Below the pieces are notes generated by a model. It had not been told where the DNA came from and did no database searches. It saw nothing but the letters and a program-made list of their open reading frames with translations. 64,000 nt of DNA, taken from the NCBI GenBank assembly GCA_029858505.1, contig JAOUEW010000004.1, positions 131,779-195,778 of the forward strand, written 5' to 3'. The stretch is from Deltaproteobacteria bacterium. GTDB taxonomy: Bacteria; SAR324; JACQKK01. Shown one piece after another: positions 3,391 to 58,278 of this stretch (within the stretch, counting starts at the first letter, position 1; every line of letters begins with the position of its first letter). A program made the translations under genes and the position numbers.

Positions 3391-7575
<4,185 letters not shown>

Positions 7576-12588: not shown

Positions 12589-13080
12589 ATGAAAACCAAG
12601 ATCATGCGATGGCCAGTGTTGGGTGTGGCGTTCGGAATAGGTCTGCTGATGGCCTGGGAGCCCCACCCCGCTGTGGCCATGGGGGAAGGGGAGGCCTTAG
12701 GAGGGCTGATTGAACTATCGTTTGATTTGTCCTCGACCACGACTGAAATCATGCTATGGAAAGACAAACAGGATGAAGAAAAAGAAAGGGATGAGAAAAA
12801 GAAGGGGGCGGAAACCCCCTCCGCCACCCAGCGGGAATACTTGAGACGAGAGGGAGAAAATCTGGCTCAGGAAGCCGCCCAGGGGGGCGGAGAGCGCTTG
12901 GTGGTGGTGGCCGAATGGATGGGCTGCCCGGCAAAAATTCACCCGGCGTTTTTCCGGGCAATACAGGCCAAGCAGCCGGGTCTGTTCTTTTCCGGCGCCA
13001 ACCCAGACGCCACCTGGGCGGGCATTCGTGAAACCGTGCGCCAAACCCCGGAACTGGCTGCCCGGTGCCAGGCGCCTTGA
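12589..13080 (+). CDS. Hypothetical secreted protein
   Basis: 163-aa ORF with N-terminal signal-like hydrophobic segment and a Lys/Glu-rich low-complexity stretch; plausible RBS (aggagag) upstream. Confidence 0.45.
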   Translation: MKTKIMRWPVLGVAFGIGLLMAWEPHPAVAMGEGEALGGLIELSFDLSSTTTEIMLWKDKQDEEKERDEKKKGAETPSATQREYLRREGENLAQEAAQGGGERLVVVAEWMGCPAKIHPAFFRAIQAKQPGLFFSGANPDATWAGIRETVRQTPELAARCQAP

Positions 13081-13220
13081 GTTGGAAGCGTATTGTGGAT
13101 GAATTGGCTGTAAGGTTTACTTAGGGGGCTTGCCGGGGGGGAGGGAAACAGCGTAGGTTTTTCTGGAACCCCTGTTTTTTTCCACTTCCTATCGTTTCTC
13201 CATCTTCCGGCCAAGATTCC

Positions 13221-14144
13221 ATGCAGGTCCATTCCTTCCGTCCTGTGTTCTTCCCCCGTCCGGCGGTGCTGACCCTGGGGAATTTCGACGGCATGCATCT
13301 GGGCCACCAAGCCTTGGCCCGGCGGGTGGCAGAGGAAGCCCATCGTCTGGGGGGGGTGTCTACCCTGGTGACCTTTCACCCCCACCCCCAAAACGTGCTG
13401 GGGGCCCACCCGGAGCCCCAGATTACCCCCCTGGCCATGCGGTTGAGTTTGCTGGGGCCCTTGGGGCTGGACCGGGCGGTGGTGATTGGCTTCAGCCGCG
13501 ACATGGCCCGGCTGACCCCCGCCGAGTTTATCGAGGAATATCTGCTGAAGCGCTTTCCTTTGGTGAAGCTGATCGTGGGGTACGACTTTGCCTTTGGGGC
13601 TGGGCGTCAGGGCACCCACTTTCGCCTGGAAGAGTTGGGCCGCCGCCATGGATTTGAGGTGGAGGTTTTCCCCGAAGTGCGGGTGGAGGGAGAAGTGGTG
13701 AAATCCACCGCCATCCGCAAGTTGTTGGAGGCCTGTCGCTTTCACGAGGCGGCCCGGCTGTTGGGCCGTCCGTTTTCCCTGGCGGCACCGGTGGCGCGGG
13801 GCGATGGCCGGGGCAGTCAGCTGGGCTTTCCCACTCTGAATCAGCCCCTGGAAGAACCCCTGCCCCTGCAAAAGGGGGTGTACGTAACCACGGTGCGGCT
13901 GGCGGGGCAGACCTATCCCGCCGTGAGCAACTATGGCCGCCGCCCCACCGTGGGGGGGCACCAACTGGTGATGGAATCTCACCTGCTGGATTTTGACCGA
14001 AAGGTGTACGGGGCCATGGCGGAAGTTACCCCCCACACCATGCTGCGAAGCGAGCAGGCCTTCCCCTCGTTGCAGGCCCTGGCCCAGCAAATTGACCAGG
14101 ACCGGCTCCAAGCCCGTGCTTGGCACCAGGCCCAAAGCCGCTGA
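13221..14144 (+). CDS. ribF: Bifunctional riboflavin kinase / FMN adenylyltransferase
   Basis: 307 aa; N-terminal nucleotidyltransferase motif GNFDGMHLGHQ, C-terminal riboflavin-kinase motifs (RGDGRGSQLGFPTLN, E.HLLDF). Confidence 0.9.
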   Translation: MQVHSFRPVFFPRPAVLTLGNFDGMHLGHQALARRVAEEAHRLGGVSTLVTFHPHPQNVLGAHPEPQITPLAMRLSLLGPLGLDRAVVIGFSRDMARLTPAEFIEEYLLKRFPLVKLIVGYDFAFGAGRQGTHFRLEELGRRHGFEVEVFPEVRVEGEVVKSTAIRKLLEACRFHEAARLLGRPFSLAAPVARGDGRGSQLGFPTLNQPLEEPLPLQKGVYVTTVRLAGQTYPAVSNYGRRPTVGGHQLVMESHLLDFDRKVYGAMAEVTPHTMLRSEQAFPSLQALAQQIDQDRLQARAWHQAQSR

Positions 14145-14533
14145 TCCATGATAGATAACGGGCGGATTGTGTTTCAGGGGATGCCCAACCATTGAGACGC
14201 CCCAAGACCCCCAGCGCCTCCTATTTTGTTCCCTAGATCAACCCTCGTTCTTGGGGGGGGCGCTGTCCAGTGGAGCAAAGCTCAGCCTTTTGCGCCAGTG
14301 GGTTGATTTTATTGGGCGAACCCCCACGCCATATTTTTCATAAGAAAAGTCCTGCCTTATGTGCCTGATGAAGTAGAATTCGCCCCCCTGATTCTCCCAT
14401 TCATTTCTTAATGTCTTGCTTTTTAACGCCCATTATAATATTGCAATGGTTAGCGGGGGTGGCTTTTTCCCCCGCAAGAAAGACCTGGCTTAAATAAGGG
14501 CCGGTATTTCAATTCAATCTCTAGGAGATCATC

Positions 14534-15016
14534 ATGATGAAAAAGATGGCTGTTATTTCCATGGTGTTTGGCTTGGCTTTGGCCGGCAACGCCATGGCCA
14601 CTGCCGACGGCGCCGGTTGCGGTGTGGGTCAGCAACTTTTCAAAGGTAAAACCGGATTGGTCAACCATGTGTTGGCCTTCTCTGTCAACGGAACCTTTTC
14701 TGGCACTTCTTCCATTACCTCTGGCACCTCTGGCTGCCATGCCAACGACTCCACCCTGATGCGCGAAAAAGAGCAGCGCGAGTTCATTTCCCTGAACCAG
14801 GACAACCTGTCTTTGGATATGGCCCAAGGCCGCGGTGAGTATCTCTCCACGCTGACTGGCCTGATGGGCTGCTCGGTGGAAGCCCAAGGCGACTTCGCCC
14901 GGATGACCCAGTCCAAGTACGCTGAATTGGCTGGTTCTTCCGACATGCTGAACGCCATCAAAAGCGAACTGGCTGCCGATCCTAAACTGGCCAAAGCTTG
15001 CAGCCGGATTTCCTAA
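14534..15016 (+). CDS. Small secreted four-cysteine protein, DUF3015-like (family assignment from memory)
   Basis: 160 aa, signal peptide, four Cys at conserved spacing (GAGCGVG, TSGCHAND, LMGCSVEA, KACSRIS); paralog of the next gene. Confidence 0.6.
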   Translation: MMKKMAVISMVFGLALAGNAMATADGAGCGVGQQLFKGKTGLVNHVLAFSVNGTFSGTSSITSGTSGCHANDSTLMREKEQREFISLNQDNLSLDMAQGRGEYLSTLTGLMGCSVEAQGDFARMTQSKYAELAGSSDMLNAIKSELAADPKLAKACSRIS

Positions 15017-15071
15017 TCATTTTCCGGGCCGGAGGACGTTCCCCCGGACGGTTTAAACATCCAGATTCATC

Positions 15072-15578
15072 ATGGAGAATACAATGAAAAAACTCATCGG
15101 ATTGGTGATTGCCCTGGGGCTGTTTGCCCCCATGGCCATGGCCGACAACGGCGGTGCTGCCTGCGGTATTGGTGCCACCCTGTTGCGGGGCAAAAGCGGC
15201 GTGGGCCCCCACCTGTCGGCAACCTTTACGGACAGCTTTGTGGAGTACGGTAACTTGCTGTCTTTGACCACCGGAAACTTTAAGCCTGGGTTCTTGGGCT
15301 GCGACCCCAAAAACTCCGTGATCCAACGGGATATGGAGCGCCGGGACTTCGCCAAAGCCAACCAAGAAAACCTCTCCCGCGACATGGCCGCTGGACAGGG
15401 CGAATACCTGAGCACTTTCTCCGGCATGATGGGCTGCTCTCCTGAAGCCCAAGCTCAGTTTGCCCGGGTGATGCAGGCCAAATACAGCAAAATTTCCGCC
15501 AACGCCGACATGGTGGAAGCGGTGAAACTGGAAATGGCCGCCGATCCTCGGTTGGCTTCCGCTTGCAGCCTGTCTTAA
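15072..15578 (+). CDS. Small secreted four-cysteine protein, DUF3015-like paralog
   Basis: 168 aa; collinear with the previous ORF incl. all four Cys (AACGIG, FLGCDPKN, MMGCSPEA, SACSLS) and the shared block GEYLST..GMMGCS.EAQ..FAR..Q.KY. Confidence 0.6.
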   Translation: MENTMKKLIGLVIALGLFAPMAMADNGGAACGIGATLLRGKSGVGPHLSATFTDSFVEYGNLLSLTTGNFKPGFLGCDPKNSVIQRDMERRDFAKANQENLSRDMAAGQGEYLSTFSGMMGCSPEAQAQFARVMQAKYSKISANADMVEAVKLEMAADPRLASACSLS

Positions 15579-28268: not shown

Positions 28269-28380
28269 GGGGGGCCAGGAAGAAATCGCTTTCCCCGCCG
28301 GATTCGACGCATGGCCGGAGGGATGCCGGGAGACATGAAATCAATCTACCCGGCCCTCACGAAAAACGCACTTTCCTCCT

Positions 28381-29214: not shown

Positions 29215-29365
29215 GTGGGAGAGGGACAATACTCGAACCCATCGGCATACTTTTCAACCGTTCGGTTAGTGAAAACTGGACGGAAGCAAATAATTAACCC
29301 ACCGGATTGGAGTTGTTCCCCCCTCCCTGGTTGTGGAGGGGGCGAGGGGGGAATGGTACTGTTGG
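29215..29365 (+). repeat. Dispersed intergenic repeat family B, copy 1
   Basis: Core actcgaacccatcggcatacttttcaaccgttcggttagtgaaaactggacggaagca shared with 35285-35345, 45018-45080, 50945-51010, 51125-51190, followed by a G/C hairpin. Confidence 0.55.
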
Positions 29366-35189: not shown

Positions 35190-35480
35190 CTTGTGACTCG
35201 AATCCATCGGCTTCGATTTGCTTCCCAATAGCACCTCACCCCGCCAGCCGAACGGCTGGCTGCCCCTCTCCCGAAGAGAGGGGCCATGCTCGAATCCACC
35301 GGCTATTCTTTTCATCCGTTCGGTTGGTAAAAACTGGACGGAAGCAAGTGCGTAACTTGTCGGATTCGAGTTTAGGGATGCCCGTAGGGCAGGGGTGGGG
35401 TGTTGTTGATTCAGCCGGAAGGAAGCAAGCGCATAACCTTTCGGCTTCGAGTAGAACTGCCTTTGGAGCAGGGGAGATGG
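35190..35480 (+). repeat. Dispersed intergenic repeat family B, copy 2 (one full unit plus partial units)
   Basis: Contains cacctcacc / ccgccagccgaacggctggctg / cccctctcccgaagagagggg / ccatgctcgaatccaccggctattcttttcatccgttcgg...actggacggaagca, then two gcgyataacyttkcgg(a/c)ttcgag motifs. Confidence 0.55.
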
Positions 35481-45002: not shown

Positions 45003-45150
45003 TTTTTGCTTCCATGCTCGAAGCCATCGGCGATTCTTTTCAACCATTCGGGAAGCATAGACTGGAAGGAAGCCATTACTTCACCCATCGGATTCGATTT
45101 ATTTCCCCTTCCCGTCGGGAAGGGGATGCTCCGTCAGGAGCAGGGGAGGA
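45003..45150 (+). repeat. Dispersed repeat family B, copy 3
   Basis: ccatgctcgaagccatcggcgattcttttcaaccattcgggaagcatagactggaaggaagcc...cacccatcggattcgat then hairpin ttccccttcccgtcgggaagggga. Confidence 0.5.
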
Positions 45151-45185
45151 GTGCTGTTGGAAGGGACAAGGTGGGTATCCAGCGG

Positions 45186-46769: not shown

Positions 46770-49700
46770 ATGTCGTTTATGCACAAAATTTCTTGGGTGG
46801 GGTTGTTGTTTTTGACCAGCGTGCTGTCTGGCTGCGATATTCCCAAAGTGTACCGGGGAATTGACCACCTGCTGCCCACCTGCTTGTACTGCCCGTTTGT
46901 GCAGGCCACCCCACAGACGGTGGCGGAAGACCAAGCGAACGCTCCCATCACGTTGACCGTTACCGACTCCGACTCAACGGCGGTGACCCTGGCTGTGAAG
47001 GCCACCACCGCCAACGGCACCCTGACCTGCCCGGTGAATCCGAACACCACGGCGGGGAACCTGACCTCCGGGTTTACCTTCACCTTTAACTGCACCTATA
47101 CCCCGAACCTAAATTATAACGGTGCGGATAGTTTCGACGTGGTGGCCACCGACAACGCTTTGCCCACGGCCAGCGCTTCCACCACCACCACCATTCCCAT
47201 TACCGTTACGCCGGTGAACGATGCCCCGGTGTGGGGCACCAACCCGGCCACCATGACCTTTAACGAGGACACCCCCACCACCTTCACCGTGACCGCCACG
47301 GACGTGGACGGCCCGGCCCTGACCTTTGCGTCCTTTTCCACCCCCGCCAAGGGTGGGATTGGCTGCTCGGCTCCCAGCCTGGTGGGAATCACCTATACGA
47401 CGACGTGTACGTACATCCCCGGCTTGAACAAGAACGGCGCTGACACTTTCTCCATGCAGGCATCGGATGGCACCCTCACCTCTGCCGCATCCGCCCTGAT
47501 CGGAGTGACCATCAACCCGGTGAACGACTCGCCGGTGATTAACTCTGCCCCGGCCATCAACACCCCGGAAGACACCGCGGCCACCACTACCGTGAACGTG
47601 ACCGATGTGGACGGCGTGGCCCCCACGGTGAGCGTGACCGGGGCCCCAGCCAATGGGGCGGTGGGTTGCGGCGCGGCCACCATGGTGAATGCCACCACCT
47701 GGACCTACGTTTGCACCTTCACCCCCAACTTGAATTGGAATGGAACCGACAGCTTTATTGTGCAGGCCAGCGACGGCTTGGCGTTTGTGAGCACCACCGT
47801 GGGGGTCACCGTGACCCCGGTGAACGATGCCCCGGTGATTACCGCCGCCCCGGCGCTGACCACCAATGAAGACACGGCGGGCACCACCACCGTTACCGTT
47901 ACCGACGTGGACGGCCCCACGCCCACCTTAACCGTAAGCACGGTCCCAACAAAGGGCAGTGCCGCTTGCGGCACGGCCACCGTGGTGAATGCCACCACCT
48001 GGACCTATGTGTGCACGTTGACCCCCACCTTGAACCTGAACGGGGCCGACAGCTTCGCGGTGCGGGCCTCCGACGGCACCCTCACCTCCGCGCCGTCAAC
48101 CATAACGGTGACCATCAACCCGGTAAACGACCCGCCGGTGATTAACTCTGCCCCGGCCATTACCACCCTGGAAGACACGGCAGGAACCACCACCTTGAAC
48201 GTAACCGACGTGGACGGCGTGGCCCCCACGATCACCATTACCACCGCCCCTGCCCTGGGGGGGGTGACCTGCGGCGCGGCCACCGTGGTGAATGCCACCA
48301 CCTGGACTTACCTTTGTACCTTTACCCCCACCCTGAACCTGAACGGGGCCGATAGCTTTATTGTGCAGGCCAGCGACGGGTTGGCGTTTGTGACTTCCAA
48401 CGTGGGTGTGACCATTACCCCGGTGAACGATGCCCCGGTGTGGGGCACCAACCCGGCCACCATGACCTTTAACGAGGACACCCCCACCACCTTCACCGTA
48501 ACCGCAACCGACGTGGACGGCCCGGCCCTGACTTTTGCGTCTGTGGCTGCCCCGACCAAGGGTGCCATCACCTGCGCGGCTTCCTCGGTTGTGGGTACCA
48601 CCTATACTTCAGTGTGTACGTTTACCCCCACCCTAAATCTGAACGGGGCCGACAGCTTCACCATGCGGGCGACGGATGGCACCCTCACCACGGCCACTAC
48701 CGCCGCGATAACGGTGACCATTACCCCGGTGAACGATGCCCCGGTGTGGGGCACCAACCCGGCCTCGATGACCTTTAACGAGGACACCGCCGGGAACTTT
48801 ACGGTGACCGCCACGGACGTGGACGGCCCGGCCCTGACCTTTGCGTCCTTTTCCACCCCCGCCAAGGGTGGGATTGGCTGCTCGGCTCCCAGCCTGGTGG
48901 GAATCACCTATACGGCGACGTGTACGCACAACCCTGGCTTGAACATGAACGGCGCTGACACTTTCTCCATGCAGGCATCGGATGGCACCCTCACCTCTGC
49001 CGCATCCGCCCTGATCGGGGTGACCATCAACCCGGTGAACGACCCGCCGGTGATTACCGGGACCCCGGTGAGCCAGGCCTTCAACAGCGGCGTGGCCCAG
49101 AACCTCACCCTGGCCAATATGGGAATCACCGGCGTGACCGACCCCGACATTGCCACCAATGGCGATGTGCTGACCTATTCCATTGCCGGGCAGCCCACGG
49201 GCGCCCTGGCCTCGGTTCCCTTTGCGGTTGGGGCCACCACCGGCACCATCACGGGTACGGCCTCGGGAGAGGGAACGGTTTCCCCCGAACCCTACACCGT
49301 CACCCTCACGGTGACCGACAGCGGGGGCGGGCAGGGTGCCGGATTCAATATGTCGGCGTCTGCCAACGTGCCGTTCTCGGTGACCGACGTGACCCCGCCC
49401 GTGGTGCCCGTCGTGCATGTGAATCGGTCCACCGCGGGTCTGAATGTCCTTGAAGTCACCTTTTCTCCAGGCTCGGCCGATCAATCTGGAGTGATTATAT
49501 GCCAGCACGTGAAAGGAACACCGGTTCCCACGGCAACCCTCGTGGCGGGGACGGGTGCTTGCAGTTCCGGAGTTTTAACACAGGCGGCAGCCTGGGCCGG
49601 GACCAGTTTCATCCCGGCGATCGCGGGAGGGCCTAATGATTTTGCCGTCTACGCCTATGATGAAGTGATGCTGCTGGGCCCCGGCGTGAACATTACCCTG

Positions 49701-50759
49701 ACCCCGAAAACCGTGTTTGCCGGCGGTGGTTATCAAGCCTCTTTCATGACGCCCATCACTGGAGCGTTGGGTACCTTTGCCTTGGCTTCTGGGGCAAGCT
49801 CGGCTGGGGGTGCTGTCACCGACCCCGCCGGACGGTTTGTATTCACTTCTGATTTTGCGTCCAACACCGTGAGCGCCTACAGCATTGACCAAGTCACCGG
49901 TCTGGTCACCTCCGTGGGGGTGCCCATCGCCAAAACAACCACCGGGATGACCCTTTCCCGACAAATGGCCATTGACCCTGCCGGGCGCTATTTATATGTG
50001 GTGGGTCAAACTTCCAACAGCGTGGCGTCGTTTGCCATCGGCGGTACGGGCATCCTGACTGCGGTGACCGGTTCTCCGTACTCAACGATGGATGCGACAG
50101 CCGTGGCCACGTCTCCCCAATCCCTGGCTGTCCATCCCTCCGGGCAGCTCCTGTTTGTCAACAACAGCGGAGACAAGACGATGGCGGCGTTTGCCGTTGG
50201 CGGAGGAGGGGTGCTGACCCAATTAGATTTAAATCTGGGGGTAGGCGGGCTCCAAAACTTCGCTTTGACGCCCGCTCCGATGGCTTCCCTTTCGGTGGCG
50301 GTGACCCCGGGTGGTAACTGTGCTTATGTGGGAACGCAAACCGGGGTCGGCCAATACGGCATTTATGCCTACACGGTTAACATGGCGGCCACCCCCCCCT
50401 TTACCGCCGTCACGGGCTCTCCTTTCGTCAGTGCGACTCCTCCGAATCACATGACCACCAATTTAACTGGGTCGGTTCTCTATGCGGCGGGCGGCACCAG
50501 CTTGCAGGCATTTACGGTGGACCAAGTTACGGTCCCCTGTGCCCTGACCAGTGCCGCTACTTTGGCGAACGCGACCACTTCTCCGGAAGGCTTGACCCTA
50601 GACCCCACGGGCCAATACCTGTACATTCCGAACAATCAGTATAATATTGGCGTGGACGCGTTTTCGGTGGGTGCTACCGGAACGACCCTGAGCAAAATCG
50701 CCAATTATCCCATTCTCACCAATACCATGGATATCGCGGTGATCGGGTTGTGGCAGTAA
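46770..50759 (+). CDS. Giant surface lipoprotein adhesin: ~9 tandem cadherin/Ig-like ~97-aa repeats plus C-terminal lactonase-type 7-bladed beta-propeller
   Basis: 1329 aa; lipobox LSGC; repeats punctuated by PVND(A/S/P)PV and a conserved Cys pair; C-terminal blades with recurring ..S..V.AF.I....G.LT.V motif. Confidence 0.85.
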   Translation: MSFMHKISWVGLLFLTSVLSGCDIPKVYRGIDHLLPTCLYCPFVQATPQTVAEDQANAPITLTVTDSDSTAVTLAVKATTANGTLTCPVNPNTTAGNLTSGFTFTFNCTYTPNLNYNGADSFDVVATDNALPTASASTTTTIPITVTPVNDAPVWGTNPATMTFNEDTPTTFTVTATDVDGPALTFASFSTPAKGGIGCSAPSLVGITYTTTCTYIPGLNKNGADTFSMQASDGTLTSAASALIGVTINPVNDSPVINSAPAINTPEDTAATTTVNVTDVDGVAPTVSVTGAPANGAVGCGAATMVNATTWTYVCTFTPNLNWNGTDSFIVQASDGLAFVSTTVGVTVTPVNDAPVITAAPALTTNEDTAGTTTVTVTDVDGPTPTLTVSTVPTKGSAACGTATVVNATTWTYVCTLTPTLNLNGADSFAVRASDGTLTSAPSTITVTINPVNDPPVINSAPAITTLEDTAGTTTLNVTDVDGVAPTITITTAPALGGVTCGAATVVNATTWTYLCTFTPTLNLNGADSFIVQASDGLAFVTSNVGVTITPVNDAPVWGTNPATMTFNEDTPTTFTVTATDVDGPALTFASVAAPTKGAITCAASSVVGTTYTSVCTFTPTLNLNGADSFTMRATDGTLTTATTAAITVTITPVNDAPVWGTNPASMTFNEDTAGNFTVTATDVDGPALTFASFSTPAKGGIGCSAPSLVGITYTATCTHNPGLNMNGADTFSMQASDGTLTSAASALIGVTINPVNDPPVITGTPVSQAFNSGVAQNLTLANMGITGVTDPDIATNGDVLTYSIAGQPTGALASVPFAVGATTGTITGTASGEGTVSPEPYTVTLTVTDSGGGQGAGFNMSASANVPFSVTDVTPPVVPVVHVNRSTAGLNVLEVTFSPGSADQSGVIICQHVKGTPVPTATLVAGTGACSSGVLTQAAAWAGTSFIPAIAGGPNDFAVYAYDEVMLLGPGVNITLTPKTVFAGGGYQASFMTPITGALGTFALASGASSAGGAVTDPAGRFVFTSDFASNTVSAYSIDQVTGLVTSVGVPIAKTTTGMTLSRQMAIDPAGRYLYVVGQTSNSVASFAIGGTGILTAVTGSPYSTMDATAVATSPQSLAVHPSGQLLFVNNSGDKTMAAFAVGGGGVLTQLDLNLGVGGLQNFALTPAPMASLSVAVTPGGNCAYVGTQTGVGQYGIYAYTVNMAATPPFTAVTGSPFVSATPPNHMTTNLTGSVLYAAGGTSLQAFTVDQVTVPCALTSAATLANATTSPEGLTLDPTGQYLYIPNNQYNIGVDAFSVGATGTTLSKIANYPILTNTMDIAVIGLWQ
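47130..49070 (+). repeat. Intragenic tandem repeats (~290 bp unit) with several near-identical copies
   Basis: e.g. 47215-47520 vs 48730-49035 and 48425-48530 share long runs of identical nucleotides (gatgccccggtgtggggcaccaacccggcc...gacggcccggccctgac...). Confidence 0.8.
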
Positions 50760-50785
50760 GTCGGGTGAACGGTTCTTTCTAACAA

Positions 50786-50819
50786 CACCTCTCCCCTTTG
50801 GGGAGGGGTGTTTTTTTTT
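50786..50819 (+). terminator. Rho-independent terminator after the adhesin gene
   Basis: cacctctcccc-tttg-gggaggggtg followed by T9. Confidence 0.85.
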
Positions 50820-50859
50820 GCATAGTCTCTACCCCGTACAACACCCCACCCTGGCGGCT

Positions 50860-51295
50860 TTCAGGGGGTGAGGTTTCATCAAGCGGAGAATGGACCTCAC
50901 CCCACCCGCTGGCGCGGGCTGCCCCTCTCCCGATGGAGAGGGGCAATGCTCGAATCCATCGGTTATTCTTTTCAAGCGTTCGGAAAACAAACCCTGGACG
51001 GAAGCAGGCCATGCCCAAACGCCATTAAACTCCCCCTCTCTTCGGGAATGGGGGCGGTGAGGTTTCATCAAGCGGAGAATGGACCTCACCCCGCCCGCTG
51101 GCGCGGGCTGCCCCTCTCCCGATGGAGAGGGGCAATGCTCGAATCCATCGGTTATTTTATTCAAGCGTTCGGAAAACAAACATTGGACGGAAGCAGGCCA
51201 TGCCCAAACGCCATTAAACTCCCCCTCTCTTCGGGAATGGGGGGGTGAGGTCCAAATACGGAAATCAGCGTGTAACTTGTCGGACTTAGGCAGAG
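50860..51295 (+). repeat. Dispersed repeat family B, tandem copies 4 and 5 (~180-bp units) plus a partial third unit
   Basis: Two ~95%-identical units (50868-51057, 51050-51240), each = ggtgaggt..acctcacc hairpin + cccgc-tggc-gcggg hairpin + cccctctcc-cgatg-gagagggg hairpin + core ctcgaatccatcgg..ttcggaaaacaaac..tggacggaagca. Confidence 0.7.
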
Positions 51296-57011: not shown

Positions 57012-57980
57012 ATGGCCAAGAAGGTATCTACCAAGGAAATTGGGCTGATTTTGGCCCCCCACCTGCTGAAAACCGAAGACCTGCATTATGGCTATTGGAA
57101 GGGGCTGGCGGTCAACCTGACCAACCTGCCCAAGGCCCAAGAGGCTTACACGCAGCACCTGATCAGCCACATTCCCCAGGGGGTGAAAACCATATTAGAC
57201 GTGGGGTGCGGCACGGGGCACTTGGCCCAGCGGCTGCTGGCCAAAAAATACCGGGTGGAGGGCGTGTCGCCCTCGCCGGTGCTGTCGGACATGGTGGAAA
57301 AGCGGCTGGGGAAGGCCTTTCCCCTGCACCGCACCACCATGGAGGGGCTGAACCTGGACCGCACGTTTGACCTGGTGATGTTTTCGGAAAGTTTCCAGTA
57401 CATTCCCCCCCAAGCCAGCCTGCCCATGTGCCGCACCCTGCTCAAGCCCGGCGGGCACGTGTTGATCTGCGATTTTTTCCAGAAGGAAGGCACGGGAGAC
57501 AGCGCCCTGAAAGGCGGCCACCTGCTGAAGGGGTTTTATGATTACCTGGCTACCCAGCCCTTTACCGTGGTGAAGGACCTGGACATTACCCCCCACACCG
57601 CCCCCAACCTGCAACTGGTGGATGACATGCTGACCCAGTGGGGCCTGCCGGTGTGGGACACCTTTGGCTATTACTTCAAAAGCAATCACCCTTGGCTGAG
57701 CGCCCTGTTTACCCGCATGTTCCGCCGCAAGCTGGAAAAAGTGCGCTTCAAGTATTTTTCGCACCAGCGCAACGCCAAAACCTTTGCCCAGCACAAAAGT
57801 TACCGGCTGCTGCTGCTGCAATTGAAATCCAACGGCGATCAAACCACGGCAGACCCGCGCCCGAAACTTTCCCCAGCAAAAAAAACCACGGTTCGGCCGG
57901 GGAAACCGGCCCGCAAGCCTGCTATGAAATCAGCAGGGAAATCAGGGGGGAAGTCAGGGGGAAAACCCCGCCCGCGGTGA
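57012..57980 (+). CDS. Class I SAM-dependent methyltransferase with Lys/Gly-rich C-terminal tail
   Basis: Motif I ILDVGCGTGHLAQRL; tail KPARKPAMKSAGKSGGKSGGKPRPR. The ORF track starts at 56952. Confidence 0.8.
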   Translation: MAKKVSTKEIGLILAPHLLKTEDLHYGYWKGLAVNLTNLPKAQEAYTQHLISHIPQGVKTILDVGCGTGHLAQRLLAKKYRVEGVSPSPVLSDMVEKRLGKAFPLHRTTMEGLNLDRTFDLVMFSESFQYIPPQASLPMCRTLLKPGGHVLICDFFQKEGTGDSALKGGHLLKGFYDYLATQPFTVVKDLDITPHTAPNLQLVDDMLTQWGLPVWDTFGYYFKSNHPWLSALFTRMFRRKLEKVRFKYFSHQRNAKTFAQHKSYRLLLLQLKSNGDQTTADPRPKLSPAKKTTVRPGKPARKPAMKSAGKSGGKSGGKPRPR

Positions 57981-57981
57981 A

Positions 57982-58054
<73 letters not shown>

Positions 58055-58278
58055 AATGGCGGTAGGAAAAGCGAAATGTTGGAAAGCCTGGGGGTGATAG
58101 GCCCCTGGTCATCCAACATAAAGGCGGTGGGGGGGGCTGTCAACGGAAGGGCTTTCCCCGTCGGGCCTGCCCGATGGCTGGCAGATTGGCTTCGAACAGG
58201 GGGGTCTTTCTATCGGGTCTTTTTCTATCTGGCCGGTTGCTCCCTGTGTTTCTTGCTCACCCCCAAATCTCCCTCGTC

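Follow-up and report, generated by a model that had tools for sequence, protein, structure and literature searches.

A lineage-specific family of nested palindromic intergenic repeats in an uncultivated bacterium related to SAR324 and Lambdaproteobacteria

A real, previously uncatalogued and lineage-specific family of nested palindromic intergenic repeats was identified in a 64,000-nt stretch of bacterial chromosome (hereafter, the window). The members were probably non-coding repeats of the REPIN/BIME/MITE kind. A core of approximately 85 nt lay in the middle of a larger unit, mostly 200-203 bp long, in which two mutually inverted arms of G/C hairpins flanked the core and outer inverted repeats of approximately 16 nt (ACAACACCCCTCCC / GGGAGGGGTGTTGT) closed the unit. 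An earlier note on this DNA had proposed a novel dispersed and structured repeat. This proposal was borne out by copies beyond the window and by the Rfam search, in which no family reached threshold in the window or in the other loci that carried the units.

Core copies and unit architecture

The core was present in the window in five copies, all of which were intergenic and on the + strand, together with 5' and 3' fragments (Table 1). The five dispersed copies that the earlier note had listed were all found within a few bases of where they had been placed. A BLASTN search of 50860-51295 against the window returned the tandem copy (E = 2e-91) and + strand matches at 35233-35346 (E 5e-24), 29218-29288 (E 1e-12) and 45014-45073 (E 5e-11). 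A 35-nt core pattern had 0 matches in 100 shuffles. The nhmmer profile built from the five copies gave E values of 2e-26 to 7e-20 for those copies and, in the window search, added two core fragments, a 3' one at 35415-35450 (E 1e-4) and a 5' one at 35197-35212. The mean column identity of the 85-nt core alignment (A2) was 81%. The core was conserved and was not palindromic as a whole, with 9-nt inverted ends of its own (CTCGAATCC/GGATTCGAG), which were 100% complementary at 35289-35297/35362-35370. A weak match (E 0.14) to the core 3' arm (CCGCCGGATTCGAC) was also seen at 28278-28307, in the spacer of two divergent genes, and may be a decayed core fragment or a chance match.

Table 1. Positions of units, cores and partial units. 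Coordinates refer to the window unless a metagenome locus (L) is named.
Feature	Position	Strand	Evidence and remarks
Left-arm hairpin remnant, locus A	29218-29231	+	3' strand GGGAGAGGGACAAT; compared with other left arms
Core copy A	29232-29312	+	nhmmer E 3e-24; alignment A2; 3' arm degenerate (GGATTGGAG)
Right-arm C-rich/G-rich hairpin, copy A	29316-29353	+	Inverted repeat TTCCCCCCTC/GAGGGGGGAA, 100% complementary
5' fragment of a host core, interrupted by unit B	35196-35227	+	ACTCGAATCCATCGGCT...; nhmmer fragment
Complete unit B, 179 nt	35228-35406	+	Outer inverted repeats ATAGCACCTCACCCC / GGGGTGGGGTGTTGT; paired-repeat scan
Core copy B	35289-35370	+	nhmmer E 2e-26; perfect 9-nt arms, best-preserved copy
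3' fragment of the host core	35407-35452	+	TGATTCAGCCGGAAGGAAGCAAGCGCATAACCTTTCGGCTTCGAG; nhmmer E 1e-4
Core copy C	45017-45098	+	nhmmer E 2e-25; without left arm
Right arm of copy C	45104-45159	+	Hairpins TCCCCTTCCCG/CGGGAAGGGGA and GCTCC-GTCA-GGAGC; outer repeat AGGGGAGGAGTGCTGTTG; sequence, inverted repeats
Empty unit, outer repeats abutting, then T9	50782-50814	+	ACAACACCTCTCCCC-TTT-GGGGAGGGGTGTT; paired-repeat scan
Second short outer-repeat pair, leading into the tandem array	50838-50876	+	ACAACACCCCACCC ... GGGGGTGAGGT; sequence, fold
Tandem array of type-2 units, 189-bp period, 96% identical	50864-51251	+	TRF; BLASTN 96.5% over 200 nt
Unit D	50893-51063	+	Core 50949-51006 without 3' arm; type-2 tail
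Unit E, make-up as unit D	51082-51252	+	Core 51138-51195
Degenerate core 3' arm closing the tandem array	51270-51289	+	GTGTAACTTGTCGGACTTAG; weak nhmmer match 51258-51286
Third unit type, 5' core half replaced by CGGCTTAGGCCGARRRGTGGAGAATAGAATC	L004 5362-5392; L007 5513-5545, 5728-5760, 6775-6809		

The unit boundaries were delimited by the outer repeats. Read in the core orientation, the left side of the full unit comprised the outer repeat ACA[AG]CACCCCTCCC, a variable G/C hairpin, the hairpin GTCCCTCCCC-loop-GGAGAGGGAC and AAT[AG], followed by the core. The right side comprised the hairpin CCCCTCC-ACGA-AGGGGAGGGG, a second variable G/C hairpin and the outer repeat GGGAGGGGTG[CT]TGT. Each arm was composed of a variable G/C hairpin and a CCCTCCCC/GGGGAGGG hairpin, and the left arm was an inverted copy of the right arm (25 nt, 84% complementary). 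The outer repeats were 16-19 nt long and 95-100% complementary (16 nt at 100% in L005 and 19 nt at 95% in L007). In the pattern scan, paired outer repeats were 200-203 bp apart in 10 units and 179 bp apart in unit B of the window. The flanking G/C hairpins that had been described earlier were recovered by sequence and by the inverted-repeat search. The core of 60-70 nt described with them does recur, but the true repeat unit is larger.

The units differed in their make-up. The tandem pair at 50864-51251 (TRF period of 189 bp, 2.1 copies, 96% matches) was of a second type, without the core 3' arm, and agreed with the tandem pair claimed earlier at 50860-51295. The hairpin ggtgaggt...acctcacc was formed at the junction of two type-2 units, from the right outer repeat of the first and the left outer repeat of the second. 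The 5' part of unit D consisted, in order, of ACCTCACCCC, CCCGC-TGGC-GCGGG and CCCCTCTCC-CGAT-GGAGAGGGG, then the core; after the type-2 tail came CCCCCTCTC-TTCG-GGAATGGGGG and GGTGAGGT. In a third type, the 5' core half was replaced by a segment whose reverse complement aligned with the normal segment with a score of 21, which was reached by 1 of 500 shuffles. This type may be a local inversion, as far as the alignment indicates. 'Empty' units, in which the outer repeats abutted, were found in L002 (5922-5961, 40 nt) and in the window (33 nt). Units were hence found empty, full, truncated, tandemly duplicated and nested in the loop region of another core, and the arrays held 2-5 units.

Nesting was clearest at locus B. 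Unit B, which held a CCAGCC-GAAC-GGCTGG hairpin, a CCCCTCTC-CCGAA-GAGAGGGG hairpin, the core and a GCCC-GTA-GGGC hairpin, had a minimum free energy of -103.6 kcal/mol. This complete unit was placed between the 5' and 3' fragments of another core. The arm of the 5' fragment was able to pair with both 35362-35371 and 35443-35452. The junction of TGTTGT with TGATTCAGCCGGA recurred at L004 5506/5507, and the same junctions were present in L003, L004 and L008; a unit was thus nested in the same core region at four loci. Because a complete unit sat inside a split core and these junctions recurred, the units were taken to be nested palindromes. The nested copies could be one composite that was later duplicated.

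Dispersal and genomic setting

The core pattern was found in JGI metagenomes at nine loci (L001-L009), all of them in one assembly, Ga0224495, and spread over six of its contigs. Copies outside the window had been proposed as a check on the family, and the nhmmer profile returned 32 further copies and fragments in these nine loci, which brought the number to more than 35 copies in the approximately 150 kb sampled. The earlier statement that the copies are always on the + strand held inside the window, but copies elsewhere were also on the - strand, and both strands were used in the Ga0224495 loci. The tetranucleotide composition of the pooled Ga0224495 loci correlated with that of the window at r 0.986, for which the yardsticks were 0.978 between the window halves and 0.61-0.89 for other relatives. 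The window RpoB was 100% identical to MDH4121813.1 of the MAG contig (208 kb), with a next best match of 80%, and no second close rpoB was found in the protein collection. Because the composition matched and the protein collection held no second close rpoB, the Ga0224495 loci are most likely other parts of the window's own genome, and all copies probably come from one genome. The candidate reading of a family conserved in two genomes was rejected, as L001-L009 were compositionally identical to the window and RpoB relatives did not exceed 80%; there was therefore no evidence of cross-genome conservation. The 5.9-kb contig of L006 ended inside a unit array (5628-5944), where the repeats appear to break the assembly. 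L006 fitted the window composition less well (r 0.785) and may represent a different population.

The repeat family is dispersed genome-wide in one lineage. Two patterns, a strict core pattern and an independent one, had 0 matches in 185,579 species-representative genomes. A phage or plasmid origin was rejected, given 0 matches in viral contigs and plasmids. The window GlyRS was at most 77% identical to proteins of MAGs labelled SAR324, Lambdaproteobacteria or 'Deltaproteobacteria', and the loci of relatives with 74-77% GlyRS identity carried no copies. The orthologous mog-glyS spacer in L016, a fairly distant relative with 76% GlyRS identity, was 122 nt long and had no element, whereas that of the window was 289 nt long with copy A.

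According to its gene content (rpoB, rpoC, ribF, hemE, fabI, dapB, glyS, uvrD and others), the window was ordinary chromosome. Three adjacent same-strand genes at 12589-15578 all encoded DUF3015 proteins. A 12-nt tandem repeat (GAAATCAGGGGG, 3.3 copies) at 57926-57965 adjoined the tRNA-Arg(CCT) gene at 57981-58055 (-). Moreover, tandem repeats of approximately 300 bp, 69-78% identical, were located at 47505-49042 inside a 1329-aa gene, where they encoded repeated bacterial Ig/cadherin-like domains (Big_9, Cadherin_4).

All window copies lay between called genes, as the earlier note had claimed. It had also seen no credible ORF in them, and none was found over the copies: the apparent ATG was A/G polymorphic and the copies differed by 1-nt indels, on which grounds a coding role was rejected. 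The genes adjoining the units were unrelated to one another. Integron attC sites were rejected because the intervening genes were housekeeping genes on both strands. The 16 classifiable clusters, based on our own ORF calls, comprised eight in convergent spacers, eight in tandem spacers and none in a divergent spacer. Convergent spacers were uninformative on orientation, because either orientation is co-directional with one neighbour. In tandem spacers, 5-6 clusters were co-directional versus 2 antisense (copy C and the L003 array), which was not significant. An apparent link of orientation to the upstream gene (14 of 16 clusters) was rejected on these counts. Two clusters, copy C among them, were antisense to both neighbouring genes, and within arrays all units shared one orientation.

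Several arrays began directly past the canonical terminator of the upstream gene. Other copies began 3-23 nt past a stop codon without another terminator, and those starting within a few bases of the stop codon are probably co-transcribed. The left-arm remnant of locus A began 13 nt past the stop codon of the mog-like gene. The promoter scan returned no promoter-like site at the units, and a promoter in the core was rejected, as there was no consensus site and the relevant segment varied. The empty unit at 50782-50814 lay directly after the 1329-aa cadherin-like gene (46770-50759). In the terminator scan, 50784-50812 gave the best intrinsic terminator of the region, with a 13-bp stem, 8 GC pairs and a T-run, so that the empty unit looks like the predicted terminator of this gene. 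Host selection of the units as terminator or insulator modules at gene ends was considered on the basis of this unit, of the location of half of the clusters between convergent genes and none in a divergent spacer, and of the copies that follow a stop codon without another terminator. Full units, however, were not followed by a T-run, several arrays were downstream of an unrelated canonical terminator, two clusters were antisense to both neighbours and relatives do without the units. Selection for this function is thus very improbable as the origin of the family, and it is compatible with the REPIN/BIME/MITE reading as a secondary, co-opted role.

The setting of the units was also compared with that expected for a classical MITE, i.e., an element that arose from an insertion sequence by deletion and is mobilised in trans, through its terminal inverted repeats, by the transposase of that insertion sequence. 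The uniform length of 200-203 bp, the 16-19-nt terminal inverted repeats, the many dispersed copies, the nested insertions and the empty orthologous site in the relative all suited such an element. Nevertheless, the target-site duplications that the earlier note had suggested looking for failed to appear: there was no consistent direct repeat in the printed flanks of at least 15 units, with one possible TTCTC pair in L005, and target-site duplication at the unit ends was rejected. No transposase, REP-associated transposase or Y1_Tnp domain was present among the approximately 50 window ORFs or in the fetched loci examined, and neither the window nor L001-L009 showed an autonomous parent element with matching ends. 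Furthermore, the 33-40-nt empty versions, the cores lacking arms (A and C) and the shared junction hairpins were atypical of cut-and-paste transposition. A classical MITE was considered unlikely on this balance. One gene for a DUF559 protein (Vsr-like endonuclease; Pfam E 2e-32) was located at L007 6100-6474 (-), exactly between a + array (5412-6084) and a - array (6505-7353). It was the only gene flanked by inverted arrays and the sole DUF559 gene in the sequence examined.

Folding and relation to known families

The conservation of hairpin stems with changing loops, which had been noted earlier, was correct, and the stems themselves also varied in a compensated way. When 16 distinct left arms were aligned, 91.9% of the cells were paired and both-side changes occurred in 7 of 15 pairs, as in GCCGCC/GGCGGC, GGCACC/GGTGCC and CCAGCC/GGCTGG. 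The covariation score was 0.327; shuffles gave 0.124, and sliding the partners gave no more than 0.157. Because all copies probably come from one genome, these changes are changes among paralogues and not independent events. The core gave a different result. RNAalifold detected 0 compensatory pairs among 19 distinct cores, with a covariation term of -0.22. The check for covariation suggested in the earlier note was hence positive for the arms and negative for the core. Position 7 of the outer 9-bp stem was mismatched in 12 of 19 copies (alignment A2), and the variants were, if anything, anti-correlated. The 3' motif that had been described as a rough reverse complement of the 5' core was present as inverted 9-mers, but the long-range stem proposed for it was often mismatched and did not covary; this stem, together with the inner hairpin, was rejected as a selected RNA fold for lack of compensatory changes. 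The inner hairpin of the core (CCGTTCGG/CYGGAMGG) had an invariant U-G pair and a G-Y pair, which fit the + strand only, with 52 G-U cells versus 5 A-C cells on that strand. These features are inherited among paralogues and are not independent events.

The folding energies were evaluated on both strands. Core copy B folded at -36.3 kcal/mol (z -3.7). The 458-nt array folded at -196 kcal/mol (z -4.1 against shuffles) on the + strand and at -210.6 kcal/mol (z -6.2) on the - strand. Of 17 units, 10 folded more stably as the sense strand and 7 as the antisense strand. The more stable strand varied among units, and therefore no consistent strand of function was indicated. Strand-variable folding fits palindromic DNA better than strand-specific RNA.

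A structured RNA family, in which the hairpins and core act as RNA in stand-alone sRNAs or 3'-UTR elements related to whalefall-1, would draw on the compensatory changes of the flanking hairpins, the UUCG or GCAA loops of some of them, the G-U bias of the inner hairpin, the probable co-transcription of copies near stop codons and the whalefall-1 likeness described below. On the other side, the core lacked compensatory pairs and had a mismatched outer stem, the units had no consistent folding strand and no promoter-like site, and many arrays lay beyond a canonical terminator. Truncated, nested and rearranged copies were common, and the orientation bias in tandem spacers was not significant. The units had no fixed position by a regulated gene either, as the neighbours were unrelated and the glyS gene of the relative was without the element. 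From the folding, the lack of a promoter and the many truncated, nested or rearranged copies, the small-RNA reading is disfavoured, and a structured RNA family seems a doubtful account of the units. The earlier note had offered a MITE, a REP/BIME-like element or a small-RNA family; the first two of these options were favoured and the third was not.

Known RNA families were rejected, since nothing reached the Rfam threshold and the search for tRNA-like genes was negative. Fragments of group II introns at the terminators were likewise rejected, as Rfam gave no intron matches. The only recurrent weak match was whalefall-1 (RF01762), at 21-32 bits against a gathering score of 37 bits, which no unit sequence reached. 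The scores in the window were 23.3 and 21.2 bits, and the best score (31.9 bits, E 2e-4) was that of L007 9233-9285. That match was part of a spacer (L007 9200-9340) with arm-type hairpins and no core. The whalefall-1-like matches were always on the arm hairpins, on the strand antisense to the core, and the cmscan alignments showed both hairpins and the GGGGUGAGG tail; this strand is opposite to the G-U-compatible strand of the core, which speaks against a structured RNA family. Whalefall-1 consists of two hairpins, the first being CUCYCC/GGRGAG, followed by a tail rich in purines. The 16 known sequences all come from whale-fall metagenomes, and its status as an RNA was rated certain (PMC2864571), a rating in favour of the structured RNA explanation. 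Weinberg et al. (2010; PMC2864571) presented it as a stand-alone RNA rather than as one component of a repeat.

The published alignment, flanks included, showed a hairpin CUGUCCCUCCCC-loop-GGAGGGACA in the whale-fall contigs, on the same strand and 50-70 nt upstream; over 13-20 nt, this hairpin was identical to the one in the arms of the units. The two families were thus alike in the pattern of two hairpins and a purine tail and had one flanking hairpin module in common. They differed in that the units scored below 37 bits, the 85-nt core was without a whale-fall counterpart (the core profile found nothing in the whale-fall sequences) and the whale-fall organisms were AT-rich outside the motif. 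On present sequence comparison, whalefall-1 is the nearest known relative of the units, at a sub-threshold level. The arms may belong to a wider class of modules, with scores that place them outside RF01762 proper.

REPINs are REP doublets that form hairpins and are mobilised by RAYT transposases. The BIMEs of E. coli, which bind IHF or gyrase, the RIMEs of rhizobia and the BOX elements of pneumococcus are mosaic intergenic repeats. Like REP sequences and REPINs, the units were extragenic, multi-copy, single or clustered and specific to one lineage, and, as in REPINs, two inverted hairpin-bearing modules were arranged around a spacer and the whole unit folded as one long hairpin. In contrast to REPINs, the unit was approximately twice as long with two hairpins per arm, the spacer (the 85-nt core) was conserved with its own 9-nt inverted ends, no RAYT was found among the approximately 50 window ORFs and the units had no conserved GTAG-type head. 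The likeness to BIMEs, RIMEs and BOX elements lay in the hairpin and linker modules, the variable number of modules, the arrays and the location at gene ends and between convergent genes. The mosaic character of BIMEs was found here in three unit types plus empty and partial units and in arrays of 2-5. However, the module order was fixed in a symmetric unit, whereas BIME palindromic units alternate in orientation, and the units were nested inside one another, unlike BIME, RIME and BOX elements. MITEs of the Correia/NEMIS, ERIC and RUP types resembled the units in length (approximately 200 bp), terminal inverted repeats, non-coding nature, dispersal, foldability and frequent co-transcription with adjacent genes; the difference was that no target-site duplication or parent insertion sequence was found and that empty and half units occurred. 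The family departs from REPINs, from BIME/BOX elements and from MITEs in at least one defining feature each.

Proposed mechanism and significance

Under the reading of lineage-specific nested palindromic repeats, the basic element would be a hairpin of the two inverted repeats of approximately 16 nt, ACA[AG]CACCCCTCCC and GGGAGGGGTG[CT]TGT. In full units, the loop of this hairpin would carry the two mutually inverted arms around the core of approximately 85 nt. Mobility of the units is suggested by the nesting, the dispersal and the single orthologous site found empty, which belongs to a rather distant relative. The units may have spread within the genome by hairpin-directed insertion or recombination, with a mobilising enzyme that would be encoded outside the window. 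The sequences themselves show the dispersal, nesting and duplication of the units, their boundaries and the compensated hairpins, whereas this enzyme and any role of the units in RNA are inferred. A non-autonomous element of this type would be copied into hairpin loops, its own loops included, and would accumulate in promoter-free spacers. Local expansion may have occurred by unequal recombination or slippage between the C-rich and G-rich arms. Physically, the units would mainly introduce very stable stem-loops into the spacer DNA and into any transcript that reads through it. Such stem-loops may assist in terminating or protecting transcripts, which one empty unit seems to do. The conserved non-palindromic core and its strand-specific inner U-G pair are unexplained by a purely DNA-level model.

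A more specific mechanism was also considered, namely a self-targeting palindromic mobile element that inserts into its own hairpin loops. The units would be moved by a nuclease of the host or the element, for which the DUF559 protein would be a candidate, and the arms would be homologous to whalefall-1. This mechanism is tentative and has a low probability in our estimation. If it were true, RF01762 would be a fragment of a widespread nested palindromic family and not a small-RNA gene. The module that the units have in common with whalefall-1 suggests in any case that at least one 'orphan RNA' of Rfam may be part of a repeat element.

The family is new and of the REP/BIME/MITE kind, and is not a new kind of biological system. 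In practical terms, the arrays appear to break assemblies, as in the contig of L006, and they create spurious ORFs. The finding contributes a repeat family with well-defined limits from an uncultivated, little-known lineage that is related to SAR324 and Lambdaproteobacteria. Its nested, doll-within-doll architecture is unusually clear, which makes it a useful case for the growth and spread of hairpin repeats without an evident transposase.
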